NCBI GenBank assembly: GCA_965178125.1
Contig: OZ237757.1
Location: 806,001 to 870,000 of the forward strand
DNA length: 64,000 nt
Source: Bilabrum cf. latius
Taxonomy: Eukaryota
Reading direction: 5' to 3'
Positions 8,244 through 36,200 of the stretch are shown in pieces. Under the pieces are notes generated by a model, which saw only the letters and a list, made by a program, of their open reading frames with translations, did no database searches and was not told where the DNA came from. A program made the position numbers and the translations under genes. Numbering within the stretch: the stretch's first letter is position 1; every line of letters starts with the position of its first letter.

Positions 8244-8339
8244 GCAGCCAGCACCATTACCGCGCCGTCATTTTGGCCGTCGCCCAAAGAGCTCTGGTCC
8301 TACAGGTTCACTTTAGCTTGTGTGGCACATGTCCTGAGC

Positions 8340-10433: not shown

Positions 10434-10458
10434 ACCACCACCGTCGGTGTCCTCGTCG

Positions 10459-13313: not shown

Positions 13314-13932
13314 ATGGCAGCCGTGGGCGGTGAAAGTGAAATATCAGTGGTTAATGGTGCCGAGCCGGTTCCGTCAACAGCGAAGAAAGGCCCTGAATTG
13401 AGCGCAGCAGACCCACCAACAGATGGTGCAGTTGAGGAACCTCTCGTGCAGTATATAGTGCTTCGAAAAGATCTTGTAGATAAATTGGAATGGCCTCAGG
13501 GGGCTGCAATTGCTCAAGCCTGTCATGCGAGTACAGCAGCCTTGCATGCTTTTAAAGATAGAGATGAAACGAAGCGATATTTGGATGACATCAAGAAGTG
13601 AGAGTGGCCGAGCTCTGTAGCAGCGGTCTGATACATTCACTGACAAACAGAAGCAGTGCGTGGTACTATTGTTTGATGCGTTTGCTGCATACCATCCGAT
13701 TTCACATCTAACCTGCCTGCCGAGCGAGCGCAGCATGCACAAGGTGGTGCTTGAGGCAAAGCACGAGGCGCACCTGGAGAAGATCGCGGCCAAGCTAGCC
13801 GCAAGAGATCCGCCTATCGAGCACCAGTCGTGGGTCGAAATGCCGGAGAAGATCGTCACGGCGCTCGCCACTCGACCGTACGCCCGCAGCGCGATGCGAG
13901 CGGCCTTCAAGGGACTGCGGCTGTTTAGATAA
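13314..13932 (+). CDS. PTRHD1: Peptidyl-tRNA hydrolase 2-family protein, PTRHD1-like; exons 13314-13597 and 13734-13932
   Basis: LVQYIVLRKDL..WPQGAAIAQACHASTAA..YLDDIKN/MHKVVLE..WVEMPE..TALATRPY..FKGLRLF. Ends in TAA. Confidence 0.88.
13598..13733 (+). other. Spliceosomal intron of PTRHD1
   Basis: GTGAGA donor, CTAAC branch-point-like sequence near 13708, GCGCAG acceptor. The join gives DDIKNMHKVVLE. Confidence 0.88.
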
Positions 13933-14142
13933 CGCCGCTTACACTGTTGGCAAGTAGAAACTGCCTCCGCGGCAACAGAATGCACAGATATATAGTTCAG
14001 GACCGATGTCGATCGCTCTTGCATGTACCACTCACTGCAAGTGTTTGTCATTGCGTGCAAGCTCGCCATCAGCCCACCCGACCCACGCATTTGAAGTCGC
14101 GCCCGGAGGCTGAGGCTGCACCATTACCAGTTCCGGTTCCAG

Positions 14143-15417
14143 TCAGCGCGATGATGGTGTCGGCCCAGCCATCCACACACACAGCGTTGCAGCCCCTACT
14201 GTGACGAGTGCGGCCACGCCAGCAGTCCAGGGTCTCCCTGCGATGCTGTGCCGACTGCCGCTGGTCTCGCTCGGCTGCCCCGTACTCGGGCTCGATCCCG
14301 GGAGTTCCTCGCCTTCACCCGACCCCCCATCCACCGATCCACCCGCTCCCAATCGATCCTGCTCCTCCTCCCCCCCCTGCTCCTTCACCTCCTCTGCCCC
14401 CTCCTCTTCTCCCCCCACCGAGGCCCCGCCCCGCCCCCACCCCGCCCGTGCCGCTGCCTCCAGAAGCGCCTGCTCCCACCGACCCGCCTCCCCACGCCCC
14501 ATCCGCACCGCCCCGCCTACCCCATCGCCCCCACCACTCGTCACACCTGTGTCCTCCCTCTCTTCCTCCTGCCGCCCTTCAGCGTCCAGCTCCACCTCGG
14601 GGAGCAAAGCAGCCACCTCCAGTGCCAGGTTCGGGGCCTGCCCCGTCAGCTCCCCGATCCCGAGCCCGCACAAGGTTCCGTCCGATTGCGCGGCGCCGGG
14701 AGGGCTCACCGGGCGGTGCAAGACGTGGCCGGCCTCCACTGCGGAGAACTACGGGCACGGCGTGGCGCCGGTGACGGGCCCTCCCGTGGCTGCTCTGACG
14801 GCGGAGAGGGTGCTGCCGTCCTGCTGCAAGCCGAAGCAGATGTACTGCCCCACCGATGCAGGGTTCGCGTCGTTCCTGGTCAGTAGCGTGATCGCATTTA
14901 TCACTCCGTCTCGCCCAGCCGTCGAGGTTACCCTGCGAGGACTAGTGAGTGTTCGTGGAATAGTAGGTTGATGGCATTTCCACCGTCGACGACAGTGCCG
15001 GCCAGAGAAACGAATCGCAGCGTTAGGTGATTTCATCAGGTCGCCGAAGTATTGGGATGTTACATCGGCCAGATGGTCAAAGTGCACCTCGCTGGATCCA
15101 GTTCAGCAGCTGTGCGGGTGTTCGACACGTCCAATTCATGAAAACTGTCCTCACGCGACTGTCGCTTCCACAACCGATTCTTTTGCAACTACCCTGCCGA
15201 GCAGGTCTTTGGTAGCCACAACAAGCTCCTGTCTTATGGTGGAAGATGTCACAGAGGTTTGTATCGCAGCGCTTCCAATCGTGGTCTCGAGCTCCACCGG
15301 AGATGTAGCGGAGTTGGGGAGCTGCAAAGGACCAACGCGCCACACGCCGCACAGTGTGGCATCCCGTGACTGTAACTGTGCATTCGATAGCACGACTAAT
15401 AAACTGATCCAGAGCAT
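14143..15417 (-). CDS. Hypothetical type I membrane protein (signal peptide, C-terminal TM helix); putative intron 15092-15154
   Basis: Starts MLWISLLVVLSNA. A phase-2 GTGAGG...TCCAG intron removes in-frame TGAs. TAG 14749 is read through. Hydrophobic WTAGVAALVTVGAATLCVWM precedes the TGA. Confidence 0.65.
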
Positions 15418-15967
15418 CCCGTCTTACGACCGAATGATCCTTGCGATGACTCGTTCGCAAAATGCGCGGCGCCGCCGTCGCAACCGTTGGTCGCAGGCCT
15501 TCAAACCCCCTTGTAACCCACATCGAGACGCCCAGTGAGCCCGATCTGAGAGTTTGAAAATGGTATACAACACCATGCACTGGCTCTTTAGCGGCACTAG
15601 TTTGCTTCAGGGTCATGGCAAAGGCTCAAGCGACCGGCACATAGTCTAGTGCGGTTCCAGCGACCCTGGTTCGCAGCGGTTGTAACCTGCGGCCGAACGG
15701 GCTGGTATCCATTTGGCCTCCCTGTGAGGCCCTGTACCGTACTTTCGATACTACATCTTAAGCATGGATTCAATTTAGTTGTTTGTTGTCCCCGAGTGCA
15801 CGAGTAGAGGTGGAGGTACAGGATGGCCGGGCGGCCACGATCCAGCTGGGCTGGTAGCGAGCAAAGCAACGCTCGCGGATGCCAAAAGAGCTCTCCAGCC
15901 CACTGAAGTTCGCTCCAGCAGCTAGTAGCTTGATGAATCATCTCTCGAGCGATCCACAGTCCAGTCA

Positions 15968-18900
15968 ATGGAGAGAAAATCACGGAGTGCGACAGGAAGC
16001 GCCAGACAAACGGGCTCTGCCAAAGCGCCTTCATCCCCAGCCGCCAACGATAGTGGGACAATAAAGCTAAAGGATGGTACCCAGGTAGCTATGACTACCA
16101 AGCTGCAACGACTGACCCGTCATGCTAGCCGGAGCAGCAACGAGCTGCCGCGTGTGAAGTCACGTGCAGCACGAGCCCAGCTTGCACAGCAGTACGGCAG
16201 GACGACGAGCTCCAATCGACGCTCCTCGCCGAGGTCCAGCTTATCATAGAGTGCTCCAGTTTACAGAAGCCCGCCTCGGCCAGTTCGTGGAGCGAGCAGG
16301 CCGATCAGAAGCGACTCCTGCGTGGGGTTACTTGCGACCGAGCGATTGCTCGCAAGCCAGTCCTCCGCGCGAGACATCTTGAGAGATAGCACCGGCATCC
16401 TAGGCGCAGAATCAAGTCTATATAGAGCACATTTGCGCGCGTCGTGGCTCCGCCTTGCCCTTGAGTCGGCTGGGATGCTCCAACCACTAGTAGGGACAGG
16501 CCGTTCGTCAAAACCGATCATCAGCAAGGCGAGCACTGAAGCACCTGCTCGACATCGGCCGAGCATCACCATGTCGCTATAGCCACGGCCCTAGCCAGCG
16601 CTTTCTGCAGCCAGGCATGCTCCTTTGCCCGGGGAGGGTCCGGCCCTCGTGCTCCTGACCGTGGGCGAGCACGAGGAAGGTAGAGCTGGGGGCGGGCACG
16701 ACGAAGGTATAGCTGGGGGCGAGGAGGCGGAATGCAGACGAGAGGGTGAAGGCGGCGCGCTGTCGGGAGGAGCTGGCAGCGTGAAAGGGGCGCTGCATGG
16801 CGCTGGGACTGGCAGCGGTCCGGGTACAGCAGCGACGCAGCACGCTGGAGGTCATGGGGAAGAAAGCCCACCGGCAGGGGAGGACGGGTCCTCGCTGCGA
16901 GCGCTGCTGCAGGAGGCCAGCACCGGTGTGACGAGTGCAAGCGCGGTAGTGGACGGCGGTGTGCACGTGCAAAGGGAAGGTCGCGCCCGGCCGAGTACAG
17001 CTGCCTCCTAGTCCTCGGGCCCTCGATGGGCGGGCTAGCTGCTCCAGCTGGGGTGCGCGCTGCTGCCCGCGGCCCTGGGTGTCAGCGTGCTTGCCGTGCA
17101 GGAGGAGGCCGTGGACGCAGTGATGTCGGGTGGTGTGACGAGTGAGGCCCCAATAGACCCGCTGTGCCGGTCGCTGGCGGTGCTGCTGGTGCTGCTGGAA
17201 TCCCTCTTGGCTGCTGCACCCGTACTGGGTCTGGCTCGCAGCGGTGCAGCGGGCGATGGTGCTTCAGCCAATAGAGGGGAGGAAATGCTGGATTATGTGG
17301 CGCTGCTGCGTCTGGCAGGACAGGGAGCAAGTTGTACAGGAGAGCGGCAAGTGCCGGACGCCGGCACGCGGCTCGCACTGCTCCTGCTCCTGCTCGGCCG
17401 CCCGATGCCTTCCCGTGGTGGTGGTGACAGCCTGCCGTTTGTGCCTCCCATTGACATGGATGGAAGGGAGGGAGCACAGACCGTGGCTGCTGCCGGTCTG
17501 TTGCTCGGTCAGATGCTAGCTAAGGCTGGAGCCGGTGTCGGGGAGCCGCAGCCGAGACGCCCCCATCAAGGTGTCGGCAAGGGGGGCAAGGCAGAGCAGC
17601 GGAACAGGGCGGGGCTAGGGCAGCAGTCGCACGGCATTGCAGTGCAAGCGTGGACGGCGCTGGCGCGACACCCCTAGGGTGCATCGCACGCGGGTGCAGA
17701 CAAGCCGGCCACCCGATCGGATGCTCTGCAGTGGAGGGACAGCCCGCTGCCACTCCCACTGCCTTACCTGCACCTGCTGTCCGTGGACGATGCGCGTTAC
17801 AGAGCCTCTAGGGCTATTGCAGATTGGTCCTCAGTGCCTTTGGTGCGCGGTGGCAGAGATGAACAGTTCGACGAAGAGCAGTCGGTGCTGGGAGGGAGCG
17901 CGCAGCTGACCTCGAGGCTGAGGGCTCTAGCCGAAGGCAGGGAGGCTGCCACGCCCGAGCACGACCAGAACGGTCCGGACAGCGCCCGCGATTCTGGCTC
18001 CGAATCATCGCTGGTCACCTCCATGGCCCGATTGCTGGAGTCGAGTCCGATTGCTGCCACCGCCGCGAGTCGGCTGGTGCTGTCTGCGTGGCACGACGTG
18101 GCACTCTGGATACTCCCTGGGCCACCAGCACCAGTAGGGCAAGATGGATTGATGGCAGGCGGCTCATCGCATGAGAACATGCAGCCAAAAAGCGCTGCAA
18201 GGGGCAGAACGGATCGGCGAGGCAGCAACACCAGCGGCACAGGCCAGCGGCGGCCGCACATGACGAGCGCACCACCGCTGGCAGGCAATGCGAGCCGAGC
18301 CAGGGCGAGCCGTCACTCGAGGCGTCGGTCTGTCGGCGCATCGGGCAAGCGTGGAGCATCGTCCAGACGGCAGGGCGCGCATCATATCTCGAAAACTGCT
18401 GCTCCTGGCGGCGCAATGGGCATGTCGCGCCTACAGATGCGGCGGAGGGCGCGGGAGGCCGCCGCTGCCATCCAGGGGGGCTCCAATCCCAACCGAAGGC
18501 CCTTGGCGCAGCCCCTGGCGCGGCACAAAAGGAGATCTTCGGCAGCTGGTGCCCAAGTTCCAAGCAAGGCTGGTGCGCCACCCGTCACCCCCGATGCGAA
18601 GGAACAAAGTGCCGCCAGCGAGGTCTCTAGATGTACCCCCCACCCGTGCCTCGCCCTCGCCTGCGTCGGTGCCGCGCTTCGAGCGTCGATCAGCGACCAG
18701 CTGCACTGCGAGGCCGCGAAAAAGATCGTTGCGGATCGAAGGGCCGCGCTCAGGGAACAACGTTCCAAGGAACAATCGAGCGACCATCCCGAAGCCGCTG
18801 CGCCCGTTGGGAGGATTAACCCAGGCAGGGGCAAGAGACCACCCATGCCGTCCGTGGGGTAGTGGCTGCAGGGGCTGGGTGCTGGGAGGAGAGGGGAATA

Positions 18901-21900
18901 TGACGAGAGTCGTACGGGTGGTGGAAATACCGGAGGGGGGCAGCGGGACGGCGCATCGAAGAAGAGCAAGCGTTCCACAACTCCCGGGCCCATGCCCCCC
19001 GTCCCCACCCCTACATCGGAGCTGCCTCCACTCCCGTCATACGCCGTAGTAGCGGCGGGCAGGCGGCCATACGGCCCGCCCGAGCTGTTGGCAGCAGCTG
19101 GAGGCACGGTCTGCCCGCTGCTCCCAGTGCGGGCCAGCGACTCGGAGGGGGACGTGGGAGTGAACTATAGTGACACTTCCAGAGGACGCAGCAAAACTTC
19201 GGATGCGTCGAATGGCGGGCGCGAAAAGGTAGAAGAGTCACCGACAGGGAGACCAGCCGAGCATGCACAGGCTCCTGTACCCGGCAGCCACGCAGATCAG
19301 AATGTGGGCGGCAGCTAGCCAGATGCCCGGGGGGGCGCGTATCCCGAGAATCCGTTCGAGGACGAGTCTCTGCTTGGGGGCGGCGATGCATCCTCGGGTG
19401 GTACCACGCCTCAAGGACCTGGCACTGATGCTGGCAGGGGTGCCGAAGGGCGGCATGGTGCCCTGGTCACGGACAAGATGAACTTGATGGGCCAGGGCAA
19501 GCAAGAGGAAGAAGAAAAAGACGAAGAAGACCCGTTCCCGTGGTGGCAGCCGGGTGAAGGCACCCAGCAGGACGCTGGCAACAAAACGAGCAGTGCACAA
19601 GTGGGCGATGGACTGGGACACGATGGCTCGCCAGGCTAGCCCAAGGATGGCAGCCCCACCAGCCCAGTGCAAGGACTCAGAGCGCTGCTGCAGCAAGCCA
19701 AGGCGGCCTCTGAACTGGGCGATGGTGTGCAGCATACGGTGCGGGACGGGCCAGCAACTGAATCAGGTAATCAGACCGTCGACAATGACAAGTCTATCGC
19801 TGCTGCCACCCCCGAGCGCGGTGTGGTCACGCCCATCGACTGGGCGCTCGTGGGCAGGCGTGCTGCCTTGTTGCAGTGGAGGGGCGCAGAAACGATCGAT
19901 CACAGCCGGTGGAACGGCTTGGGGTCGCCCGATCAGCGGAAGGGGCGCGGCAGTCGGCAGTCGTCGCAGAGATAGCAGCAACGGAAGGTACGGGGAGGCC
20001 ACCGCAGCGGGGAGTACGGCGGGGAGAACGACGGCGTGCACGAGGCCGGGTGGTTTGCCACGGCTAGCCAGAGGTATGCGTCCACCCTCCGCGGTGGAGA
20101 CAACACGGACCGGATGGGGATCTATGGCAGGGGGCCGCACGGGGCTGGCATGCCGCAAGGAACACGGCCTCGTGGGCGGCGGGAGGGCCGTGCCTCGCAC
20201 ACACCACTCGCTTCGCTGCAATGGGCGCTCCTGCCATAGAGCCAGCAGGCAGTCGCGCTGAAGAGACTGAGGCACCGACCGAGGCGGTGGATCAAAACAC
20301 TGCCCCTGCTGGCCGAGCGGACAGCAAATCTTCTGCAGGAATTCGCCGGCCAGAGTGCCGCTCCTGACAGCAAGACAGGGCAGGGCACGGCTAGTGCACG
20401 GAGCTCGGTCGGCTGGCTGGGTGAACAGGGACCCAAGGAGTACCTCCGTGATGTGCTACAAGATGCTGCTGATGCCCACGCAGCATCCCTGGCCGCAGCG
20501 GCGCCGAATCAGAGGCAGCTCCACCACGACCACCAGAGGCTTCAGGTGGGTCGCGTCCCCCAAGCGGCAGTGGGAAAGGCTGCGAGCGAGTCAGACGTCC
20601 CGGTAGGTGACCCGCGCAGGCACTCGTCACACTCAAAGCAGCCGCATTCGCAGCACAAGCACAAGCACGGGCGCGATCCAAGCGGCAAATCGGACGATGC
20701 GCCCCGCACGCCGACGAGGCGAGGCGGAGGACTCGAGACCCAGGCCGGTGCCGGAGCTCGAGGAGGAGGCAACCACGGGTCCCATGGTACGGGCGGTCCA
20801 ATGCGCGAGGAGGTGGAGCGGCTGCACACGCCCCGCTCAGAGCGAGGAGTGGTGGCAGGGGGTGGCAGCAACCAGCCGGCCCCTGCTGCGCTCCTCGTTG
20901 AGCTGGACCAGAGGCACTGGCGAGGGAAGGAGGAGGCAGCCGGCGCCGCGCTTTCTTCGTTCCTTGCGGAGCTCAACGACAGGCAGGAGTCGATCGCCGG
21001 TGATCTCAGCAAGTGGCGGGACCTGTGCGTCAGAGAGGAAGAGGTGTCCGCGATGCAGGCCAGGCTCAACAGGACCGCAAGCGGCAGAGGCGGAGGGGCT
21101 GCCCTCCAGCGAGGCCATGGGGGCCTTGAAGGTGCACCGCACGATGGTGTTGACGCACGCGCGGGCGGCGGGATGTCCCGTCGCCGGAGCAGCGACAGGC
21201 TCCTTCGCCGATCCAGCACGCTGCAGTCCATGGGAGCCCAGGCACAGGCCAGTGGGAGTGTATCGACTGGCGCACAGCTGCGGGGAGCTGCAGCGGCAGC
21301 AATACCGGATCGCAGCGAGATGGACCCCTCTACTGCGTCCAGGGAACAGTGGGGCGAGCTGTCCTTTGGGGAGGACGAGGGTTTGCAGGACGTGGAGGTG
21401 CTGGTGCAGCTGCTCAAACCCACCGAGACAGCCGCAGCGGAAGTCAGGGAGGCTGCCGGCCGGATTCTCAGGGAACAATACCCGCCCAGGGTGCTTGAGA
21501 CCTCCCAGCCGGCGCGTCAGGCTGCGGAACATGCCGGTGCCGCGCTCGCCAAGGCGGCCAACCGGTTCCTGAAGAGGCACCGGCAGCGGCTCCGGGGTGC
21601 GCTGCAGGCCGTGGCAGCCGTGGCCTACGTAAGGTACCAGCGAGACGTGGAGGAGATCACGAACAGGGAACCTTCGCTGTCCCTGGCGACTCTCCGGGCC
21701 GAGCAGGAGGCGGTGAGGGGCGGCGGCGCGGCTGCATTCGCTGCAGCTGGCTCCAGAGAGACAGAGAGCGCCAGTGGATCGGGTCTGGCCCCTGCATCCG
21801 CGAAGTCGTCGGGTCTAAGCGCACATCATCGAGGTGGAACGGGCAGAGAAGCTGCAGCGCATAATGCAAAAGAGGGGGGGGGGCAGCCCACACATCCCCG

Positions 21901-24900
21901 CAACCTGAAGGAACTGCAGCAGCTTGCTCGCCGGGAGGTGGATCGGCTCACCGATGTCACAAAGGTCCTGCTTGGAGCCGCCCGCTGGCGCGCCACCGGG
22001 CTGCTGGATGGCGCGCTGGCCCGGTTCCGCAAGGCCGCCAGCAGGCTGCTGCAGCCCGGGCCCGAGGGTTGGCTCGCATTCGAGGTGCAGGAGGGCGAGG
22101 CGCGGGGCGGCGTGGCTGCCGCCATCGCAGCGGCTGGGTCCGACCTGAGGCAGCGCGTGGTCGCGCAGATGGAGCGGGCCCTGCTTGCGGCGGTGAGACG
22201 GGCGAGGGTGGAGAGGGAGCGGAGGCAGGAGCAGCAGAAGCAATAGGAGGGGGAAGAGAGGGAAGAGCAAGCATCGGGGGAGATAGAGCATGGCAACTAG
22301 GCAGATGGAGCTCATCTGGAAGAGCGCGCTGTAGTCGTGGGTGAGGGTGCTGGCGGGGAGGAACCGAAATAGGAACTGGCGGGCGAGGAGGAGGAGTAGA
22401 TCTAGTCTAAGGCTGATGATGACGAGTGGAAGGAGCTGTCTCCGAGGAGCTAGTCCAGCAAGGACAAGGACGATGCGGCTGTCGATCGCACGGCGGAGCC
22501 CTAGCCCTTGCCTCAAGCAGGAGGCAGTAGTGCCCGCCCTGCCCCTGCTCCTGCCCCCGCTGACCATGGCCCTCATCAGGAGGGCAAGGAGAAGGAGAAG
22601 GAAACGGGCGGGCGAGTACAGGCTAGCTGGACGGCCAAACGCAACGAAGTGGAAGAAATCGAGGGCACCGACAGCGACAATGGCAGCGACGATAACGATG
22701 ACAGCAGTGACATATTCGGGGAGGGCAAGACGGTGGAAGACACCCTCAGGGCAGTGAGCCAGCTCGTGGCCTCCATGAGAACTGCGAGGGGGTACGTGGC
22801 GCGGGTCGTGAAAAGGGAGGCCCAGTCGCACAGACACGGGGTGGTCAAAGCGGAGGGGGTGGCCAATCTGGGTAGATCGGGCCAGGGTCCACCGATCGAG
22901 TGGGGCACGGCAATCAGCATGTGCCGCGCAGCTGCGTTCGCCCTTCGCTTCGCGCCGAGACTGAGGGCGCAAGCGCTCGCTTGGAAGGAGGAGGCGCAGA
23001 CGCAGATATAGGCACAGGCACAAGAGCAGGCAAGCGGCAGTCAGACCACAGAGGGCCGGGGGCTGCCGAGTCTGTCCACCACCCAACACGCGGGCCCAAG
23101 GCCGCCGCAGGGTAGCCCGCTGGCACGGCAGCGCACGGCCCTCGCCGACTTTGGCCAGGACCAGGGAACAACGGCAGGAACCACAGAGCGAGGCCCGTTG
23201 CCGTCCAGACAAGCCCTCGACGCGGCGCGCGGCGCCGGTTCCGCAGACGCGCTGGAGCTCCGCGTGTCGGAGCGAGCAGACAGGATCGTGGCTGCTGCTT
23301 CGGGCCGCATCTACGTGCCCCAGGGCGCGCTGCAAGGCAGTGCACCCGGCGGGGGCGCCTCCCCCGGTGGTAGAAGCACAGGTTCCATGGGCAGCGGCCG
23401 GTCGGGAAGCCGCCGGGGCTCTGTTCTCCAGCCCAGGCACTCCCGGGCACAGCTGCTGCTGCCGGGGACTTCCCCCCCAGCGGGAGCCTCCTAGCCGGGG
23501 GCATCCTCTCCGGATGGAAAATGGGTTGGGAGCGTGAGTGGCTCCCCGTCTGCTCTACTTAGGCGGTAGACGGCCGCACCTGGATCCCCCGCCATCGACG
23601 ACGACCGGTTGCAACCAACCGCTGGAAGAGGGTCCACGCCCTAGCCGCCCTCCTCCTCACCAAGGGCGGGGAGAGCCCCCACCCATTTAGATGCGGAGGC
23701 ACTCCTTGCCGCGGAGCAAGCATGTGTGACGAGTGCGATGCCGGTGCTGTCCAGGTTGCTGCCGTGGCTCTGGCCCACCTTCGAGACAGGAACAGGAACA
23801 GGGGACAGACGCAGTGCAGAGAGCGGCCCCAACAGGGGCCCTGCCGTGGCCTGCCTGCCCCCGGTGATTGACGGCTGGAGCGGGAGCGGGAGCAGGAGCG
23901 GCGGCGCGGGAAATGGGATCGAAGATGAAGATACCGACCGCCCGACGCCGCCCTCACTCCTGTAGGCACTGCAGTGCGCTGCAGCTGCCGCGGACCACAC
24001 CGCCCGCCGCGCCTCCGACAGCACTGCGGCTGTTTCGCTGACCGCAGGACTCAGGCGGCTGCTGACCCTATGTGGCGACTCGCTGCGGGGATGGACACCC
24101 CCTCTCGGTTCCGCAGGGCGCGGCGCCGCAGAGGGCATGCTGGACGCGTCGCTGGCTGCGGCCGGGGCGGCGCTGCGTGCGTGTGCGAGCGCGATGGTGC
24201 TGCATCGCACTGCGGTGCGGGTGCAGGGGTCCTGCTGCCGGTGCGCCGCCTCGGCTGTGCGCCTGGCGGCAGGCGCGCGGGCCGCGGCGCGGTCGGCTCT
24301 GAGTGTTGATGGATACATCGCTGGGGGTGGGTCTGACGGCGCGATGGAGGCAGCAGCAGAAGCAGGAGCAGGAGCAGGAGCAGGAGCAGACTCAGTAACC
24401 CAGATGGGTAGGCGGGCCCGTGGCACGGGCACGGGCACGCCGCCCGAGCTGTTGGAGGGGCCTGTGGCGTGGCTGTTTGCTGGCAGCAACAGCAGCGGTA
24501 ATGATGGAGGGGAGGAGGATGCGGTTGGCCGGGACGACGATGCACCAGGCGTGGGGGAGGCTGCGGTGGAGTGCGTGGCGGCAGCGCTTGCCATCGTGCC
24601 GGCGGCTCTGGCGTGCATCGCGGTGCACAAGCGAAACGCCGCCGCGCAAGCCCCCGCCCTCGCCGTCCGTCTGCTGTGCCAGCTGCTCCTGGGCGGGGAA
24701 CAGGACGAAATCGAAGATGAAGATGGTGACACGGGTGCTCGTGGATGTGGTGACACGGATGCCTCGCGGGTCGCCATGCTGCGGTGCCTCCCGCGGCCCT
24801 CCGACCTTGTAAGGATGCTCGTTGAGGAGGACGCCGTGGCCGTGGTGGTGGGCTGGCTGCTGGCGCGCTGCGGCGTGGCCGGGGACGGTGAGGGGAGCGG

Positions 24901-25654
24901 GGCCGGGGTCGGGACTGGTGGCGTGGCCGGGGAAGGTGAGGGGAAGCGTGAGGGGGGCGGTGACGACGGCGGGGGCCAGGCGCTGGGGCTGAGGCTGCGG
25001 CTAGTTGTTCCCCGGGGAACTCGGAGCGATAATGGCGGGGCGAGGGGGCGGCAGGTGGACGAGGGTTGCGTGGGTGCTGCGCTGCTGGGCGGTCGATTGC
25101 TTCAGCTGCTGGTGGGGGCGGGTGCCTCCGAGGGAGAGGGGCAGGAGGGTGATGGGGAGGATGGGAGCGTGGCAGAGAGTGTGACGAGTGAGCAGCGGGT
25201 CGACGGTGGCAGCGGAGAGACCCCGGTGCCACTTGGGGGCGCGAGTGGCCGCTATCACTCGTCACATCAGCCAGGTCAGCTGCTCCGAGGCATGGGCTCG
25301 AGCATCGACGTTCTGCGGCGTCGCCAGTGGTTCCGCAACCAGAAAGCCTCCCCCACGTCGCGAGCTGGTGAGGCTGGTGGCGATGGCAGCACGCGTAGCA
25401 GTGCAGTGCACCCGGACCTGTCGTCCGCTTGGAGGGACGCGTAGGAGGTGCTGGAGGAGGAGGACGGCGAGGTGCTTGCGCAGGCCGTGCTGGAGGCAGC
25501 CCGGGAGGGCGCCCAAGGTGCACTGTATTCGGGTACTGTGCGCACCCGGCTGGCGATGCGTCGGCTCGCCAAGGTGTGGGGCCAGGTGGGTGCGGCTGCC
25601 CAGCACGCCGAGGTGAGCGTGGAGCAGGTGGACGAGCACTCGCTCGGGATTTGA
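15968..25654 (+). CDS. Large hypothetical protein (~3,200 aa; helical and low-complexity)
   Basis: Fourteen track ORFs (15968 to 25448) share one frame. They are separated only by ~24 TAG codons, with no in-frame TAA/TGA until TGA 25652-25654. I recognised no domain. Confidence 0.78.
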
Positions 25655-26040
25655 GTCGGGGTGTAGAAGAACCTTGCGCGGTCTGTACGCGGTCCCTGAG
25701 TGGTCATGGAAAGCGTGCAGCACAAGGTGCGCCTGCACGATCCAGTTACAGCTCCGAGAATCGGATCCAACTAGTAAAATTTGATGATTTTGGCAAGATC
25801 CAGGATCAGGACAAATCAAACCGCAAAGCAGACAGACCACTGGCAGTGATCACCCTTTTGACGGGAATATTGAGACTTTTCATCAAGTAATTGTTTACTT
25901 CTCCCAGGCAGTTTCGTAACGTTTTCTGTTGTTTTGGACGAAGGCGGCTGGACCAGCTGGCCAATAATATCGACTGCCAGTGGGCTGATGAGTTTCCAAG
26001 AGGTTTCTCGCATCTCCTGGTTTTAATATATTGCATCGGA

Positions 26041-28131
26041 ATGACATCGTATCCTACAGATACCCTCTCGAGACACGTTCCGTGCTACAAAAATCAAATC
26101 GACGCATTCGTGGAAGAGCTTGGAAGGATTCAGAAATATGCTGGTCCCATGCGTATTGTACTTTCTGGCGATTTGAGCTCAAGCCGTGCCATTAAGGCTG
26201 TTGCCGACTTGCTTGCCACTGCTCCAGGAATTGTGGACATGGACGTGGGCACAACGCGATGCACGCCGCCGGGTGCCACCCTGATCGCGGATGCTTTGCG
26301 GCGATCGAGCTCGAGCCTACTATCATTCTCGGCTAATTCCAATCGAAATCTAGACGTGAAGGCAGCAGCAGCACTTGCAGCAGCAGCCGGGGCGCAGCCC
26401 TCCCTCGAAGACTTAGATTTGAGCATGTGCTGGCTGCACCTGGGCGGGGCTCTGGCTATTGGGAAGGCCATTGAGCAATCCAACAATCTGCAGCGAGTGC
26501 TTGTTAATGCTTGCGGCATCGAGCACAAGGGAGCAGCTGCCATCGCGAACGGGATCAGGGCGAGCACCAGCCTGCAGATACTTTGTCTTGATAACAACCC
26601 GATGGGCGACGATGGTGCCGCCGCCATCCTCAACAGCATCCAGCAATGCCCATCCATGAAGAACATCTTGCTCAGTGATGTTCACGGCGGCGATGAAATG
26701 GCGCGGGCCATGGCGCGGTGCCTGGGCCCCGACAGCCGATGCAGGTTGCAAATCATCAATGTCAATGGCAACTTGATCGGGTCAGATGCAGCTGATGCCC
26801 TGGCAGACGCGATCGCCACAAATGACTCCTTACAATCCTTATTCTGTAGCGCCACGCTGCGCACGCTGGAAAGCAGACAGCGCATGCGAGAGGCCATCCA
26901 GGCTGTGCGGCAGCGGAGGTCGTTCTACTTCAAGGCCCGCGACATGGATGTGCCGCCACGTAACGAAGACCTGGAGGGCTTCTCCTCCTGGCGCCAGCGG
27001 GCCGTGGTGCTGCACAGGAGGGTCCATGCCGCGCGCCGGGATGCAGGCCGCATGGGCCGGGCCGCGGCGGAGGGCAGGCCCCTGGAGCTGGGCAAGCGGG
27101 TCCGGCTGGGGGCACTGGGCGGGGGCTTGCGGGCCCGTGTGCGCGTGGGCGTGGACGGGCGTATGAAAAGCCGGCTGGGTCTGGAAGGATGCAGCGCACT
27201 GCTGTGCGACCCTTTGTGCGGGGCCTGTGTGGGCGGGCACGCGGACTGCGTGGGCGTGCTGCTTGACGGTGTGGTCTCGTTGGGCGATGGGACGCGGGGT
27301 CTGTGGGGCTTGCAGGACGGCGCGTGGGGCATGGGGGCGGATGGGTCCGGGCCTGTGGGGCGGGGCATGAGCTGTGTAGATGTGTGCATGCGGCTGGTGG
27401 GGGCCGCTGGGTACGAGGGTGTGTGCTCGTGTGTGGGCAGGTGGGTGGGTCAGGTGCGTGCGGGTGTGTCGAAGCTGCGTGAGTAGTGGCGTGGTGTGCG
27501 CGACCGTGCAATGCATGCGCGGCAGAAGGCGTCGGAGCTGCGGGAGGGGCTGGGCGCGGATGCACATGCCCGGGAGCAGGCGGCTCGGGAGGCGTGCTTG
27601 GCTCAATCGAGGAAGCTTTGCGAGATGAGCGGGAACGACGAGGAGGATGAGCGGCGAGGCAAAAAGTACGGGTGGTAGCTGTAGGAGGCGGATGAAGAGT
27701 TCGAGATGCAGGAGAGGGCTTGGAACAAGCTGGTGGCTGCCCGGCTGGGAGCGGAAGAGGCCCAGCAGCAGGCCCGTGTCTGCGAGCAAGAGGCGGCGCG
27801 GGTGTGGGAGGGCGTGCGGGCGAGTGTGGATGGGGTGCGGCGGGTGCTTGTGGAGGGGCAGGGGGGGGCGAGGTGCGGGGGCAGTGTGGGGAGCTGTGGT
27901 GGAGGGGAGGGTGCTATAGGGCTGTGGGATGTGGCTCTGGGGGAGGGGGCCGGGGCTGGGCTGCTGGATGCTGCGCTGGGCGCGCTGGAGCGTGGGCTGT
28001 GCGGGGATGGTGTGGACTGGGCGGTGGCTTGCGAGACTGCGCGTGTGCATGAGTGGGCGGTGTGCGAGGCTGTGGATGTGGAGGCGTTGTTCCTTGCTTC
28101 AAAGGAGGGGGGCGGTGCATGTCGGAAGTGA
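26041..28131 (+). CDS. RNI-like leucine-rich-repeat protein with ankyrin-like segment and coiled coil, paralog 1 (~696 aa)
   Basis: LRRs such as LEDLDLSMCWL, LQILCLDNNPMGDDGAAAI and LQIINVNGNLIG. Ankyrin-like PLCGACVGGHADCVGVLL. TAGs at 27484, 27676 and 27682 join a coiled-coil tail. Ends in TGA. Intronless. Confidence 0.85.
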
Positions 28132-28319
28132 GCATCCTGAATCAGATGGCTGCTTTCAATGAGACGGCAATTACAATCTTGCGTTGCCCGACTTCAGCGC
28201 GCCCTGCAGTGAGGAAGAAGGTGACATGTCGTCCACTGGCGCACCCGCACGAATCCACGGGTGTGTCATGAAGCAGTCGCGCTGCAAGTCCCCTAGGCCC
28301 ATGCCCCATGGGTGTGACC

Positions 28320-28754
28320 GATGCTAGCTATACGACACAGAGTCTCGCCTGCCTCCAGACCAGCCTCGCACCCTCACACCTGCTCACATCGCCGATGCTG
28401 GCTATATGACACAGAGTCTCTCCTGCCTCCAGACCAGCCTCGCACCCTCACACCTGCTCACATCGCCGATGCTGGCTATATGACACAGAGTCTCTCCTGC
28501 CTCCAGACCAGCCTCGCACCCTCACACCTGCTCACATCATCGATGCTGGCTATATGACACAGAGTCTCTCCTGCCTCCAGACCAGCCTCGCACCCTCACA
28601 CCTGCTCACATCATCGATGCTGGCTATATGACACAGAGTCTCTCCTGCCTCCAGACCAGCCTCGCACCCTCACACCTGCTCACATCATCGATGCTGGCTA
28701 TATGACACAGAGTCTCTCCTGCCTCCAGACCAGCCTCGCACCCTCACACCTGCT
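28320..28754. repeat. Tandem minisatellite, 74-bp unit, ~5.9 copies
   Basis: Unit GATGCTGGCTATATGACACAGAGTCTCTCCTGCCTCCAGACCAGCCTCGCACCCTCACACCTGCTCACATC(GCC/ATC), starting at 28320, 28394, 28468, 28542, 28616 and 28690. Confidence 0.97.
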
Positions 28755-30402
28755 AACCTTATCGCTCCACGCTGATGCTCGCCTCCCTTCCGCCCGGCCC
28801 TTCTGTTGTGAATATCTTCCTCCTTGGACTCGGCCTGCAGGAGACTAACCTTGCCGGACTAGTCGGTCGCTCCGTTGGCCCCAGTCGCGTCCCCATCCTG
28901 GCCTGGTCCCGGATCGTGCTCGGCTGCACCGCTAGAGCCAGACGAGCACGCTTCCGGCGCCGCGCGAGGCTTCTTGCCGGCGGGCTTGGCATCTTCATCG
29001 GAATCACCCCTGGGCCGTTTCGCTGGGAGGATGCTCCCTGACCCAGGCTGCCCGCCGGCAGCATCCCCCTCTCCGGGTGCTTCAGGGGCCGTTCCGCCCT
29101 TGTGTTGCTCAGAGTCTACACCCATGTCCTCCTATATCTCCTCTTGGTCTGCACTGAGATCAAGCAGATCTGCGCCCCCCGCGCCCGACTTGGGCTGCTG
29201 AGCCCCGCCGTAGGCATCAACCCCGATCTCGTCTTCGTCTTCGTCTTCGTCTTCATCACCCTCAAGGCTTGCTCCATCCTCCTCCCCACCCCCTGCACCT
29301 TTACCCTCACCTGCGCCCCCACCCATAGCCTTCTAGCCATCCCCTCCCCACCCCCTGCACCTTTATCCTCACCTGCGCCCCCACCCATAGCCTTCTAGCC
29401 ATCCCCAGCCAGTTGTTTCTCGCTCTTATGCATCTTCTCCATGGCTCCCTTAAGGTCTGTGCGCTGGATGAAGTCGGGCCACAGCTCTATCAGCGGCTTC
29501 TCGCCGTGTCCTGCCCGCATGTCAATCGTCAAGTGGCACTTCCTTGGGAGCGGGGCGGGCGATGCTGGGCAGTCATTGAACATGCTGACCTCATTCACCG
29601 CCTCAATCACATCTTCTGCTGCCTTTTTAAGCTTCCTGATTTGCTGGTCCCCGTCCTGCAGGTCCATCGCTATTTCTGGCGGGGCACCACTATCATCACC
29701 ATCACCAGCAGCACCAGCAGTAGCAGCAGCAGACGAAGAGGATGAGGATGAGGATGGCGACGATGTGGCTCTTCTTTGCTCACGCGGCAGGACGAACTGT
29801 TCCCTCAGGCCTGCTTGAATGGTAACTGCAGCCTGCGCCCAAGGAGCTCCGGCCTCTGTTCGGTCTGCGACTCGGCTCATCTTGAGAAGAATCGCTGACG
29901 GCGGAGGGCGTGCACTATGGTCCTTATACGCATCTAGAGCATCCTTATAGCTCGCCGTATCACCTGCTTTCCGCACAAGAAACGCGTGGTAGGAGCTCTC
30001 GAGCTATCCAATTGACAGGTCTTCAGCTTCCGCATTACGAGTGTAGTAGATCGTGGTGTAGACTGGCAAAAGCCAAATGCCTCTAGATTTACAGCCCCCA
30101 TCCGGCATCGTTAGGCTGTGCTGCATCAACCTGATAATCGATGCTGACCGCTCAAGCACTCCTAATTGAACGAAGGCTGACACTTCGGGAGCATCAGGCC
30201 GAGCGTAAAACTCCACAACGGTCGGTCCCTCCTCAGTCCCAGACATACCACCAGCCTCTCCGGCAGCATGCCCTTGTTCTTCTCGCAGGAGCTTCTCCTC
30301 CACGTAGTTCCATTTCTTGCCCAGCAGCACATCTTTCCCGACCTTCAATGAATACGACCACACCGATCCCTTCTCTGGACAATCGGAACGCTGAACAACC
30401 AC
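28685..30402 (-). CDS. Hypothetical protein with acidic C-terminal tail; 5' exon unresolved; apparent 1-nt frameshift near 29343
   Basis: ORFs 30004-30402 and 29395-29976 join through TAG. The natural-looking continuation (29132-29326, 28859-29125, also TAG-joined) is in another frame, offset by a 62-bp duplication. First TGA is at 28685. Confidence 0.55.
29281..29404. repeat. 62-bp tandem duplication inside the CDS
   Basis: CCTCCCCACCCCCTGCACCTTTA(C/T)CCTCACCTGCGCCCCCACCCATAGCCTTCTAGCCATCC at 29281 and 29343. Confidence 0.9.
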
Positions 30403-30738
30403 ATACTAGTAAATCGTTCCAGCTTGTTAAGAACCGTAGGCACAATGCAACGAAATGTACGAGAAGACGAACGCTGCAAAGGTTGCTGTTGAAAATTGCA
30501 TCATGAGCTTCATCGACATCTACGGCGAGGCTTTCATGCCCTCTTCACGACAAATGCGAAATCTTGTATGCAACAGCGGCACTGGGGTTGAAAATTGGCG
30601 TAGCGCCTGGTCAGGGGAGGCTCGGAAGTTCCGCTGAGCAATTCGGTGCCGGCGGCGCCTCATCACCTCTGCTGGCCTGGCTGTGCTGAGTCTTAAAGAG
30701 GTTTCTCGCATGTCGCAGTTTTAATATACTGCATCGGA

Positions 30739-32826
30739 ATGACATCGTATCCTACAGATACCCTCTCGAGACACGTTCCGTGCTACAAAAATCAAATCGA
30801 CGCATTCGTGGATGAGCTTGGAAGGATTCAGAAATATGCTGGTCCCATGCGTATTGTACTTTCTGGCGATTTGAGCTCAAGCCGTGCCATTAAGGCTGTT
30901 GCCGACTTGCTTGCCACTGCTCCAGGAATTGTGGACATGGACGTGGGCACAACGCGATGCACGCCGCAGGGTGCCACCCTGATCGCGGATGCTTTGCGGC
31001 GATCGAGCTCAAGACTACTATCATTCTCGGCTAATTCCAATCGAAAGCTAGACGTGAAGGCAGCAGCAGCACTTGCAGCAGCAGCCGGGGCGCAGCCCTC
31101 CCTCGAAGACTTAGATTTGAGCATGTGCTGGCTGCACCTGGGCGGGGCTCTGGCTATTGGGAAGGCCATTGAGCAATCCAACAATCTGCAGCGGGTGCTT
31201 GTTAATGCTTGCGGCATCGAGCACAAGGGAGCAGCTGCCATCGCGAACGGCATCAGGGCGAGCACCAGCCTGCAGATACTTTGTCTTGATAACAACCCGA
31301 TGGGCGACGATGGTGCCGCCGCCATCCTCAACAGCATCCAGCAATGCCCATCCATGAAGAACATCTTGCTCAGTGATGTTCACGGCGGCGATGAAATGGC
31401 GCGGGCCATGGCGCGGTGCCTGGGCCCCGACAGCCGATGCAGGTTGGAGGTTATCCGTGTGAATGGCAACTTGATCGGGCCAGATGCAGCTGATGCCCTG
31501 GCAGCCGCGATCGCTACAAATGACTCCTTGCAGTCCGTACGCTGTAGCGCCACGCTGCGCACGCTGGAAAGCAGGCAGCGCATGCGAGAGGCCATCCAGG
31601 CTGTGCGGCAGCGGAGGCAGATCAAATTCACGGCCCACGACATGGATGTGCCGCCACGTAACGAAGACCTGGAGGGCTTCTCCTCCTGGCGCCAGCGGGC
31701 CGTGGTGCTGCACAGGAGGGTCCATGCCGCGCGCCGGGATGCAGGCCGCATGGGCCGGGCCGCGGCGGAGGGCAGGCCCCTGGAGCTGGGCAAGCGGGTC
31801 CGGCTGGGGGCACTGGGCGGGGGCTTGCGGGCCCGTGTGCGCGTGGGCGTGGACGGGCGTATGAAAAGCCGGCTGGGTCTGGAAGGATGCAGCGCACTGC
31901 TGTGCGACCCTTTGTGCGGGGCCTGTGTGGGCGGGCACGCGGACTGCGTGGGCGTGCTGCTTGACGGTGTGGTCTCGTTGGGCGATAGGACGCGGGGTCT
32001 GTGGGGCTTGCAGGACGGCGCGTGGGGCATGGGGGCGGATGGGCCCGGGCCTGTGGGGCGGGGCATGAGCTGCGTAGATGTGTGCATGCGGCTGGTGGGG
32101 GCCGCTGGGTACGGGGGTGTGTGCTCGTGTGTGGGCAGGTGGGTGGGTCAGGTGCGTGTGGGTCTGTCGAAGCTGCGTGAGTAGTGGCGTGGTGTGCGCG
32201 ACCGTGCAATGCATGCGCGGCAGAAGGCGTCGGAGCTGCGGGAGGGGCTGGGCGTGGATGCACATGCCCGGGAGCAGGCGGCTCGGGAGGCGTGCTTGGC
32301 TCAATCGAGGAAGCTTTGCGAGATGAGCGGGAACGACGAGGAGGATGAGCGGCGAGGCAAAAAGTACGGGTGGTAGCTGTAGGAGGCGGATGAAGAGTTT
32401 GAGGATCTGGAGGAGGCTTGGAACAAGCTGGTGGCTGCCCGGCTGGGAGCGGAAGAGGCCCAGCAGCAGGCCCGTGTCTGCGAGCAAGAGGCGGCGCGGG
32501 TGTGGGAGGGCGTGCGGGCGAGTGTGGATGGGGTGCGGCGGGTGCTGGTGGAGGGGCAGGGGGGGGCGAGGTGCGGGGGCAGTGTGGGGAGCTGTGGTGG
32601 AGGGGAGGGTGCTATAGGGCTGTGGGATATGGCTCTGGGGGAGGGGGCCGGGGCTGGGCTGCTGGATGCTGCGCTGGGCGCGCTGGAGCGTGGGCTGTGC
32701 GGGGATGGTGTGGACTGGGCGGGGGCTTGCGAGGCTGCGCGTGTGCATGAGTGGGCAGTGCGTGAGGCTGTGGATGGTTGTGCGGTGAGGCGCCTCGTTC
32801 TGCATGCAGGAGGCGAGCATGGCTGA
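30739..32826 (+). CDS. LRR protein paralog 2 (~695 aa)
   Basis: Near-identical to 26041-28131, with the same three in-frame TAGs. Ends in TGA. Confidence 0.85.
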
Positions 32827-33216: not shown

Positions 33217-36200
33217 ATGGTAGAGAGCGCCCAATTTGAAGTCTTGGTGAGCACAGTGCTTGAGAAACGTTACAGTATTGGGTCAGATCGAGTTCTATGT
33301 GCAATTGACCCCCGCACCTTTCTCAGCGGCAGGGTTCAAGGGCAAGCTATTGGCACATAGAACTCGCGAAACTTCGGGTGGTTTGTCTTCTGCGCAGCCT
33401 CTCCGCTTTAATGTACGTAAAGAGTTTCCTCGCAGACAAGCCAAGCCTTTCTTGTTGAGTAGATTGGGCTGCTGATAGACTGCTACCTGGACCCGCTGCG
33501 AAATGTTGGATGCCCGGGCGCGCACCAGCTCAGGGAAGCTGGGGCTCTGGCACTTGCCGAGTCCAGACGTCTTTTATCAAATCTTCGCCAGGGCCTTTAG
33601 ACGACAGGTGCAAATGGCGAGGCGCCATGGTCCGTAGATGCCGTCGCTGGTGCATGTGCTCGCTTGCGCCGCCCGTTCGCCCTGTACATGGTAGAGCACC
33701 GGGCATGGCAAGGGCAACTCCTTGACTTTGTCCGAAGCAATGAGCGCGCTGCACAAGTGATGGGTCGCTGCAAAGAGACGCACCAGAGACGAGTGGCGGA
33801 CATCGTGCGGTCGATCGAATCGTTCGCTCCACCGGCCTCCGCAGGGAGCAGCAGTACCAGCGTAACCGAAAGCGACGCCACCTCTTAGTCGCGCAAGGGC
33901 CCTCGCCAGCGATCAGCCTCGGAGGATCCCCTCAGGCAGGCCATCGGGCTCCCCCCGCTGGAATCCAGGCGATCGAGCGACCTGTCCGGGCACGCTTCCG
34001 GGCGCTCCTCGCCCGTTCTAGGTTCCGCAAACGGCGGCGCCGCCGCGGGAAGCACCCCGGGTCTACGAGACTCCTCGGCGCTCAAGCGCCGGGAGCAGGC
34101 CGCCGCGGGCGGGCCCCTCCTCACCCGCCTGGAGGCCTCGCAGCTGGGCAGGCAGGCGCTCGCGGCTCTCCTTGTGGCACCAGTGCAGAGGCCCACGAGG
34201 CTGGAGCTGCTGGCCAGGAGGGTGGCCGAGGAGGCAAACCGGAAATAGAGGAAGGAATCGGTCCCGGGGGCAGCCCCGGACCCGGGGCTGCAGGAGCTGG
34301 CGCGGCGTGCGGAACTCGCGCGCGGCGCCGCGGCCGAGGTCAACCTGGCGGTGGACGCTGCCCTGGCCGCGGCAGAGAGCGCGGGGGCCCTTCGATCCGC
34401 GGCATCGCGCATGGCGCTGCCCCTGCCGCCCACGGACCCCCGCGCCGCGAGGGCTCGCCTGGCCCAGCTACGGAGCGCATCGGCCCGAGGGGGGGGTGGG
34501 CCTAGGGCCGCCGAGCGGCGGTCCAGCCGAGCCACGAGCCGACCCAGGACCAACGAGACACAGATGGCCGCGGCGGGGTTCGTCCGGCGGCCGCTGCAGT
34601 GCAATGCATCCGGGATCCTGCTGCACCCGCGGGCCCACGCCGTCGACGAGCCTGTGCACCTGCTGGCCGTGGGGGAGCTCAGGCTCGCGTGGGGCCTGGC
34701 CGACATACACGCGGGGGCCAGGCCGGCGGGCCTGGTGGCGGCGCAGGCAGCTGCCGAGAATGCCCGGGTGCTGGGGCTGGGCCCCCCTTGGGGTCTGCTC
34801 AGCACCTCCGTGCGGGCGGTTCTAACCTCCAGGGCGCTGGTCCTGCTGGCGGACGCGCGGCCGGCCCTGGCGCAGGACCGCCTATCTGCATCGTCCGGAG
34901 CCACTGGCAGCTCTGCGCGCCCATTGCCGCAGGGGCTGCTCTCTCTCGACGAGCCGGAGCAGTGGAGCGGGACGATCCTGCGGTCCAGGAGCGGCGGGAG
35001 CCTCCTCACAGGGGGCAGCGGCACGGTGGGCGGGGGGGCTGCGAGCAGCACGGGGGGCGGGTCATCCTCTGTGCTGTCCGGTTCCTCCTCCCAGGATGGG
35101 AGGGTGGGGAGCGGGGCGGGGTGGGGGGACCAGGCCCCCGCCACTGGGTACGACGCGACGCCCGAGGGCAGGCTGTGCACCATGCCTGCAGGGTACGTGG
35201 TCGGGGTGATTCCCGTGGGGCGGGACTCGGGATGCCGCGTGGAGTGGCTGTCCTCCTCTTCCTCCTCCTCGTCATCATCATCAACGGCAGCAGGGAAAGG
35301 CCCGGGAGGGCCGCGCGTGCAGCGAGGGGACTCCGTGGGGAGCCTCCTCGGGAATGCCCCTGGAAGGGGTCGCTCAGGCAGCCTCAGTGCCAGCCGCAGG
35401 TCGAGGCAGTTCGCGCTCCTGATCCCCAGAGAGAAGCTCAGGCAGGGGGCCAGGTCCATGCTGCGGACATCGGCGGGGAATGCCGAAGCGTGGAGCGCCG
35501 CGGAGGATGACCTGGCGGGGGATGGGCCAGGGAACAACGGTGCTGGAAGCCGGGGTGCCGCCGCAACCTCCACCTCCTCCACCACCTCCGACCCGTCCGA
35601 GCTGTGCTGCGCCCTCGTGGCAGAGGTGGCGGACAGGGAGCCGCTCCCTGCGTGGCAGGCCGCTTTCGCCAAGCTGGGCGCCGTGCAAGGGCGGCATGGG
35701 CGCGGCAGCGGCGGTGTGACGAGCGCGGGGTCCCTGAGCGGACTGGTCGGGGGTCGGGGTCGCGCCCATGCCCAGGGGGGCTCATCCAAGGGCATGGGGG
35801 GCATGGGCAGGAGCGGCACGGCAGCGGCGGCGGTGGTGGAGAGCCAGGGGGTGGTGGAGGGGCTGGCTCCCTTCGCCACGGCAGAGGCCCGCGCCGCCGC
35901 GGTTGCGACCGCTATCCGGCTGACCGTTGGTGGGAACGTCCCTAGGACGAGCGCCACTGCCGATGCCGCCGCGGCGGCTGCGGCGACCAGCGGCTCCCCC
36001 GCCCGCAGGCAGTCCCGGCTGCGCCAGTACAACTCGAGGGGGCAGTCGTCCGCCGAGAGCGTGTCTGGGCTGCTGCCACAGGGGCAGGGCGACGACCCTG
36101 ACGGGCAGGACGGCCGCAGGAGCGCGGCAAGCAGCGCGTCTTCCTCGTCCAGCCGCGGAGACGGGGACGGGGACGGGGGGGAGTTCCTCGACGACGGCGG

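Follow-up and report, generated by a model that had tools for sequence, protein, structure and literature searches.

Evidence for UAG as a sense codon, with glutamine as its likeliest meaning, in a GC-rich and probably eukaryotic nuclear genome

Introduction

What does TAG mean in a genome in which it repeatedly stands inside long reading frames? The question is raised by a stretch of 64,000 nucleotides deposited as Bilabrum cf. latius (assembly GCA_965178125.1, contig OZ237757.1, positions 806,001 to 870,000 of the forward strand), which was analysed as a whole and is called the window below; all coordinates refer to it. The codon that started the analysis lies in a glutamine-rich repeat within a very long open reading frame (ORF):

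23009-23011, + strand: TAG, codon 2428 of the ORF 15728-25651, in a Q slot of a six-unit (x-Q) dipeptide stretch

A preliminary description had drawn attention to the region 22985-23030 and had argued from this and similar contexts that TAG is read as glutamine. The string in question is present and in frame. Positions 22994-23029 read GCG CAG ACG CAG ATA TAG GCA CAG GCA CAA GAG CAG, which the frame of the 3308-codon ORF translates as A-Q-T-Q-I-TAG-A-Q-A-Q-E-Q. Our analysis strongly supports TAG as a sense codon in this window, in which TAA and TGA still terminate genes. Glutamine is the single likeliest meaning, at a probability of about 0.55 that is drawn largely from precedent. Both TAG as sense and Gln as the best inference are thus upheld, whereas the reasoning from glutamine-rich context proved to have no discriminating power.

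Reading frames through TAG

Reading frames in the window, which has a G+C content of 66.6%, were compared under different sets of stop codons. The longest ORF has 1182 codons if all three stops are counted, 1259 codons if TAA is freed (stops TAG and TGA), 1361 codons if TGA is freed (stops TAA and TAG) and 5543 codons if TAG is freed (stops TAA and TGA). ORF lengthening is specific to freeing TAG. In 100 block shuffles, again with TAA and TGA as stops, the longest ORF averaged 725 codons and reached at most 1149. The following long ORFs are opened by freeing TAG, and none of them contains TAA or TGA:

33421-50049, + strand: 5543-codon ORF holding 25 TAG in frame; its start weakly resembles RhoGEF (E=0.016, short of the cut-off)
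15728-25651, + strand: 3308-codon ORF holding 27 TAG in frame, closed by TGA; no family assigned by Pfam
3-5735, + strand: SF1 helicase-like ORF (PF13087 AAA_12, E=2.8e-6), open at its 5' end, 1911 codons with 9 in-frame TAG, ending in TAA
56608-61755, - strand: 1716-codon ORF holding 8 TAG in frame, closed by TAA; no family assigned by Pfam

Over 11 ORFs, TAG accounts for 85 of 17,606 in-frame codons (0.48%). Any single frame of the window holds 95-114 TAG per 21,333 codons, and since the in-frame frequency equals this any-frame frequency, TAG is not avoided in frame. TAA and TGA behave differently: they make up about 1.1% of codons over all frames vs none of the 17,606 in-frame codons. Further, all 12 ORFs whose 3' end lies inside the window terminate in TGA (7) or TAA (5).

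Two genes of known families carry TAG inside conserved domains:

10462-13209, - strand: SNM1/DCLRE1A-like gene with a DRMBL domain (PF07522, E=1.7e-13) and three in-frame TAG
13120-13122, - strand: SNM1 TAG, in a conserved VDxF-x-[Y] column directly before the HxHxDH motif
..6231, 6322-6750 and 6877-8068, + strand: exons of a spliced GH79-like glycosidase gene, with GT..AG joints in contigs of public run X5
6322-6750, + strand: GH79-like exon 2, with five in-frame TAG at 6416, 6617, 6671, 6680 and 6692, upstream of the motif EVGNEPD
6877-8068, + strand: GH79-like exon 3, without TAG, ending in TGA and aligning as far as the C-termini of its homologs

The SNM1 TAG falls within a conserved N-terminal motif and the five GH79 codons within the catalytic domain, and both domains run in frame through them. 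Joined at its observed splice joints, the GH79-like gene forms one open frame with a signal-peptide-like start and the EVGNEPD motif; a stop at TAG would truncate the enzyme at codon 81, ahead of this motif, while the TGA that ends the frame coincides with the C-termini of homologs. A search with exon 3 returned 10 homologs, 8 of them with the GH79 C-terminal domain PF16862. The closest SNM1 and GH79 matches are 29-31% identical, and the protein collection searched contained no near-identical SNM1 or GH79 protein, which suggests that the organism is not represented there. Based on these best matches, the lineage is without close relatives in the protein collections searched.

Eight public runs, which belong to four studies, contain the segment 15728-25651. 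For four of these runs (X1, X5, X6 and X7), contigs were compared with the window over 5729-25728. They match it with no differing letters listed, one X5 contig having a single unlisted difference, and there was no allelic TAG variation among these runs in this interval. The contigs of X5 and X7 carry splice joints that are absent from those of X1 and X6:

6232-6321 and 6751-6876, + strand: introns with GT..AG ends
9944-10202 and 14932-15153, - strand: introns with CT..AC ends on the plus strand

These four spliceosomal introns have lengths of 90-259 bases, and the genes that contain them adjoin long unspliced ORFs. No run is recorded as RNA, and it is only from the GT..AG joints, found in X5 and X7 and missing in X1 and X6, that we infer RNA-derived contigs in the former two runs; the source would accordingly be a eukaryote with spliceosomal introns. 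Two X5 contigs, 15732-22253 (no differences) and 22231-24344 (one difference at an unlisted position), are unspliced, and the second spans the TAG at 23009-23011. They run through the TAGs of the 3308-codon ORF unaltered, so these codons are apparently present in transcripts and not edited away. A separate feature of the contigs is the segment 10398-11064, a GC-rich low-complexity repeat common to many other loci of the genome. Here, contig word depth is 54-489 in all four runs vs about 2-50 elsewhere, and many loose contig ends and false joints accumulate at 10726-10764.

Alignment columns at TAG

The SNM1 search gave 79 homologs, of which the 77 with an HxHxDH match were aligned for a column tally and two were dropped. 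In case of GH79, 4318 proteins matched a profile of the two closest homologs (E<=0.001), of which the 150 best were used. The window proteins were aligned to profile hidden Markov models built from 145 GH79 homologs (those of at most 700 residues, of 152) and from the 79 SNM1 homologs. Five TAGs, four in GH79 and one in SNM1, are aligned to match states at posterior 9 or *. The TAG at 6617 is assigned to an insert state; in a MAFFT alignment its column contains R 60, G 23 and A 18 out of 130 and was left out of the count. The leading emissions at the five columns are:

GH79 node 100: R.15, A.12, K.11, Q.08
GH79 node 173: A.19, E.12
GH79 node 176: Q.13, K.12, A.12, R.11
GH79 node 180: A.14, K.12, E.11
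SNM1 node 456: Y.48, F.12, Q.03

The SNM1 TAG at 13120 aligns to a Tyr of human SNM1A (VDAFQY vs VDGFR-TAG). Its column in the 77 homologs holds Y 63, F 7, H 2 (the two best matches), A 2, G 1, Q 1 and P 1, in line with the caveat in the preliminary description that homologs often have an aromatic residue at this place. Summed over the five columns, log emissions are -11.08 for A, -12.91 for K, -13.24 for Q, -13.40 for E, -13.57 for R and -13.78 for S, and fall to -16.81 for L, -17.53 for Y and -28.09 for W. Gln is therefore third, with Ala 2.2 nats and Lys 0.3 nats above it. The individual Gln emissions (0.084, 0.061, 0.130, 0.091 and 0.029) agree with the median of 0.081 at true Gln codons. 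Alignment mainly to Glu, Leu or Tyr, which the preliminary description had regarded as incompatible with glutamine, was not observed, one column of the five being a Tyr column.

The discriminating power of such columns was calibrated with codons of known meaning. When five true-codon columns were drawn at random from both proteins, the correct residue came first in 71% of 2000 trials, with recoveries by residue of 0.99 for Y, 0.99 for E, 0.94 for L, 0.88 for K, 0.86 for A and 0.53 for Q. In a second calibration, four GH79 columns and one SNM1 column were drawn 3000 times per residue. The probability of a rank as poor as that found at TAG was 1.0 for Ala, 0.55 for Gln, 0.30 for Arg, 0.20 for Lys and 0.057 for Thr, then 0.033 for Glu, 0.019 for His, 0.017 for Asn, 0.006 for Asp and 0.003 for Ser, and 0 for Tyr, Leu, Gly, Trp, Phe, Val, Ile and Met. 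True Gln codons thus rank third or worse in 55% of draws, and Ala is the top call for them in 614 of 3000. The column pattern is compatible with a Gln, Ala or Arg codon, for which it is typical, with Lys being borderline, and argues against Tyr, Leu, Glu, Ser, Gly and Trp. The premise of this calibration is that TAG is distributed over sites like its synonyms.

Local context of TAG

We tallied the residues at positions ±1 and ±2 of 90 in-frame TAGs. Gln makes up 16 of these 360 neighbours (4.4%) vs a background of 3.8% (p=0.49); around CAG it reaches 5.9%. As a general pointer to glutamine, the Q context therefore fails. The contexts cited in its favour do exist at their positions (QQQQQxE at 49066, QEQQKQxE at 22244, SQRxQQR at 19973, KGQGxE at 46141 and GVRxQL at 6692), as do those cited as caveats (GEGEGEGEGxG at 9714 and VDGFRx at 13120, both on the minus strand). 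Given the missing Q enrichment over all 90 codons, however, the Q-rich examples are a selection, and the remaining TAGs stand in S-, P-, G-, K- and E-rich surroundings.

Lys is the sole residue enriched beside TAG (18/360, p=0.002), and Ala is depleted (p=0.001). CAA has a similar Lys neighbourhood (0.043) and nearly the same flank GC (0.647 vs 0.646 for TAG), so the Lys signal is at least partly compositional. Two further context measures were evaluated. By position-specific neighbour likelihood, T, K, D, Q and S all lie within 6 log units; the corresponding classifier has no power, as in a leave-one-codon-out evaluation it put the true residue first for 16 of 55 codons and ranked Gln 19th of 20 for CAG and 13th for CAA. 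By regional covariation, Lys is the one residue whose density improves on length alone as a predictor of TAG density. This test is weak, finding the true residue first for 5 of 32 codons; it also calls Lys for CAA and is confounded by local AT content.

The mean hydrophobic fraction around TAG, 0.175, is the lowest of any codon class. Surroundings of S (0.186, p=0.26), G (0.191, p=0.14) and K (0.199, p=0.08) are closest to it, followed by Q (0.204, p=0.013), E (0.206, p=0.009) and A (0.212, p=0.0014), while those of L (0.236, p=5.7e-7), Y (0.257, p=1.8e-6) and Arg (p=2.8e-5) are likewise more hydrophobic.

In repeats, TAG replaces the resident NAG codon, CAG within Q runs and GAG within (GE)n; in (KG)n it comes after AAG. 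Low-complexity context therefore records mutational origin from NAG codons at weakly constrained sites and not decoding. The ATA TAG unit of the initial site is three transitions apart from the adjoining GCA CAG unit, which fits a CAG-to-TAG origin at a site also tolerant of a change from Ala to Ile. TAG codons are further clustered, as TAG has a share of 2.9% at the positions up to two residues away from another TAG vs 0.5% overall. Such clusters include TAG-TAG, TAG-x-TAG and a triple TAG-GGT repeat, for example at 15923-15928, 22397-22405, 37666-37680 and 27676-27684.

Other features of the window

The remaining genes include a set of closely related paralogs and a short ORF with a TAG in a (GE)n repeat:

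25986-28078 (+), 30684-32776 (+) and 54227-56316 (-): three paralogous 2.1-kb RNI-type leucine-rich repeat (LRR) genes; LRR_6 just below the cut-off
8343-9989, - strand: ORF of 549 codons with two in-frame TAG, including the (GE)n-TAG at 9714; the intron 9944-10202 lies in its 5' part

The three LRR paralogs are 96-97% identical and have three TAG codons in common at equal places. They differ by 29 synonymous and 68 non-synonymous codon changes, which is near neutral. The preliminary description had proposed synonymous TAG/CAG/CAA polymorphism as a check on glutamine. No such polymorphism was found between runs, and the sole change among the LRR paralogs that involves TAG is TCG/TCG/TAG. Scans of a metagenome-contig and a genome-contig collection gave no relatives of the LRR protein. 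A tandem array at 28317-28754 (74-base unit, 5.9 copies, 98% identity) lies in the spacer following one LRR paralog, and a repeat at 29274-29406 (62 bases, 2.1 copies), which includes a TAG, lies inside an ORF at 28762-30426.

The ORFs 33421-50049 and 49691-53920 (1410 codons) overlap by about 360 bases (49691-50049) on the same strand in different frames and may be one gene split by an intron or a frameshift. The final TAG of the 1410-codon ORF is located two codons upstream of its TAA stop (...SR-TAG-RK-TAA, 53912-53923). A search for relatives of the 5543-residue protein, made among proteins of 3048-9701 residues, gave none. The 3' part of the helicase-like ORF (3900-5735, + strand) consists of four similar modules of about 70 residues with W at the start and no TAG, presumably resembling winged-helix or LOTUS-type domains. 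There were no PDB matches for the N-terminus of the helicase-like ORF, for the start of the 5543-codon ORF with its RhoGEF likeness or for GH79 exon 2, and Pfam at lenient thresholds added only sub-threshold matches. In the comparison among the window's proteins made to gain conserved columns, no internal repeats or paralogs were found.

Discussion

The best explanation of these results is that the window belongs to the nuclear genome of a GC-rich (about 67%), intron-bearing eukaryote in which UAG has changed from stop to sense while UAA and UGA were kept as stops. As UAG is sense and UAA is not, the reader would have to pair with a third-position G but not with A, as expected for a dedicated tRNA with anticodon CUA (PMC5304391). 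Its simplest origin would be a one-base anticodon change in a copy of tRNA-Gln(CUG). Release factor eRF1 would no longer act efficiently on UAG and would have kept its recognition of UAA and UGA. The TAG codons themselves probably arose from resident NAG codons (CAG, GAG or AAG), mostly at weakly constrained, hydrophilic positions.

Several known codes can be compared with this one. NCBI table 6, in which both UAA and UAG mean glutamine, is used by many ciliates, hexamitid diplomonads and some ulvophyte algae. As in table 6, a stop-to-Gln change of UAG is likeliest in the window. Unlike there, TAA is not a sense codon: it is missing from all 17,606 in-frame codons, it closes five of the 12 ORFs, and freeing it lengthens no ORFs in the way that freeing TAG does. 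Table 6 was rejected on the ground that TAA is still a terminator in the window. Codes that change UAG alone are closer. According to excerpts of the respective papers, UAG alone is reassigned to Gln in the fornicate Iotanema spirale (PMC5304391) and in the ciliates Hartmannula sinica and Trochilia petrani (PMC11687900), and the tRNA-Gln(CUA) of Tetrahymena reads UAG and not UAA (PMC5304391). The window shares with Iotanema, Hartmannula and Trochilia a sense UAG next to a UAA stop, for which these excerpts predict a tRNA(CUA) reader unable to pair with UAA (PMC5304391, PMC11687900). Its high G+C content, its GT..AG introns and its use of both TGA and TAA as stops are points set against this likeness, and glutamine is only inferred here. 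Our literature search found no GC-rich intron-bearing eukaryote with a UAG-only code, which is not proof that none is in print. Excerpts of the same two papers further describe UAG alone as Leu in the rhizarian exLh (PMC5304391) and in three uncultivated phyllopharyngean ciliates (PMC11687900). Here, too, only UAG has changed and UAA is a stop, and as for exLh, the window sequence occurs in runs labelled with several different organisms; unlike in these codes, Leu is disfavoured in the window by both the column test and the hydrophobicity around TAG. In the ciliate Oligohymenophorea sp. PL0344, UAA means Lys and UAG means Glu, as stated in an excerpt of PMC10553269. The window is like it in that UAG and UAA differ in meaning and unlike it in that UAA remains a stop and Glu is disfavoured. 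A change of UAG alone from stop to sense, with Gln as the likely residue, is thus of a kind already known.

A number of results nevertheless weigh against glutamine. Only five columns are alignable, four of them at variable, exposed positions. Gln stands third in them, the SNM1 column favours Tyr, and by the calibration the pattern is no less typical of Ala or Arg than of Gln. The surroundings of the TAGs suggest that these may be young and limited to sites under little constraint, in which case Glu and Tyr would be rejected less firmly. Gln is not enriched beside TAG and its own sites are more hydrophobic, while both the neighbourhood and the regional covariation signals belong to Lys. Support from translation components is missing as well, since the window contains no tRNA gene by ARAGORN, no Rfam match and, in a Pfam scan of all long ORFs, no eRF1 gene. 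Some of these points would be explained if TAG meant Ala, Lys or Arg, read by a tRNA(CUA) of such an isotype, which we consider unlikely but deserving of weight. Ala and Lys are first and second over the five columns, and at 37666-37680 TAG takes the K slot (KGKG-TAG-G-TAG-G-TAG-G). Mechanistically, an Ala reassignment is easy because the alanyl-tRNA synthetase (AlaRS) is known not to read the anticodon, whereas the tRNA identity rules make Arg awkward. On the other hand, Ala is the commonest residue (16%) and for this reason also comes out on top at variable columns when the true codon is one for Gln, Arg, Lys or Pro. Ala and Arg have more hydrophobic surroundings than TAG, beside which Ala is also depleted, the Lys signals are at least in part compositional, and the literature search turned up no nuclear UAG reassignment to any of the three. 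Leu and Glu do have such precedents, being reported meanings of other UAG-only or UAG-specific nuclear reassignments in excerpts of PMC5304391, PMC11687900 and PMC10553269. Further, Glu is only 0.16 nats below Gln in the column test and TAG occupies E slots in GEGEGEGEG-TAG-G (9714) and EEEE-TAG-I-TAG (22397). Both are improbable in the window: Leu ranks 10th, a position as low as none of 3000 true-Leu draws gave, and has far more hydrophobic surroundings, while true Glu codons are called Glu in 2771 of 3000 draws and rank fourth or worse in 3.3%.

Tyr, as suggested by the SNM1 column with its large excess of Tyr over Gln, is very improbable. At the four GH79 columns Tyr emissions are 0.011-0.036, Tyr is 11th overall, and true Tyr codons are called Tyr in 2817 of 3000 draws and never rank 11th or worse; Tyr sites also have much more hydrophobic surroundings than TAG. 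The two closest SNM1 homologs have His at the TAG column, so the column is not fixed, and the GH79 columns outweigh it. Another conceivable situation is one without a dedicated tRNA, in which eRF1 has lost UAG and near-cognate tRNAs read it ambiguously, TAG being tolerated mainly at unconstrained sites. In standard-code eukaryotes, the near-cognate readers of UAG are Gln, Tyr and Lys tRNAs. This would match the least hydrophobic surroundings of all codon classes, the variability of four of the five columns with their mixed signals (one Tyr column, the rest K/Q/A/E/R) and the clustering of TAG. The TAG load of the window, with up to 27 codons per gene and five in one enzyme domain, is hard to reconcile with inefficient ambiguous decoding, and excerpts on documented stop-to-sense codes invoke or report cognate tRNAs (PMC5304391, PMC11687900); we regard ambiguous reading as quite improbable. 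Hardly credible is that TAG has kept its stop function, the long ORFs being artefactual, pseudogenes or several distinct genes in a row. In-frame TAG is no rarer than out-of-frame TAG, which would equally be seen in non-coding DNA, but the complete lack of in-frame TAA and TGA, the TAG-specific ORF effect, the SNM1 and GH79 domains continuing through TAGs and the spliced RNA-like contigs spanning them all speak against this. Glutamine therefore remains our preferred reading. That UAG here means a residue without nuclear stop-reassignment precedent in the literature found (Ala or Lys), or is read ambiguously by near-cognate tRNAs, is a tentative possibility; if true, Ala, Lys or ambiguous UAG would constitute a new nuclear genetic code in a lineage without close relatives in the protein collections searched.

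For practical work, standard-code gene calling on this genome fragments almost every long gene, and a wrong residue for TAG would corrupt proteins at about one site in 200. Low-complexity context is an invalid guide to how a reassigned codon is decoded. It is rare for UAG and UAA to differ in meaning in a nuclear code, with excerpts of PMC5304391, PMC11687900 and PMC10553269 naming a handful of lineages, mostly ciliates. A GC-rich intron-bearing eukaryote in which UAG is sense at about 0.5% of codons, and UAA and UGA are stops, would add an independent case, and the code of the window thereby bears on whether the meanings of UAG and UAA are coupled in evolution.

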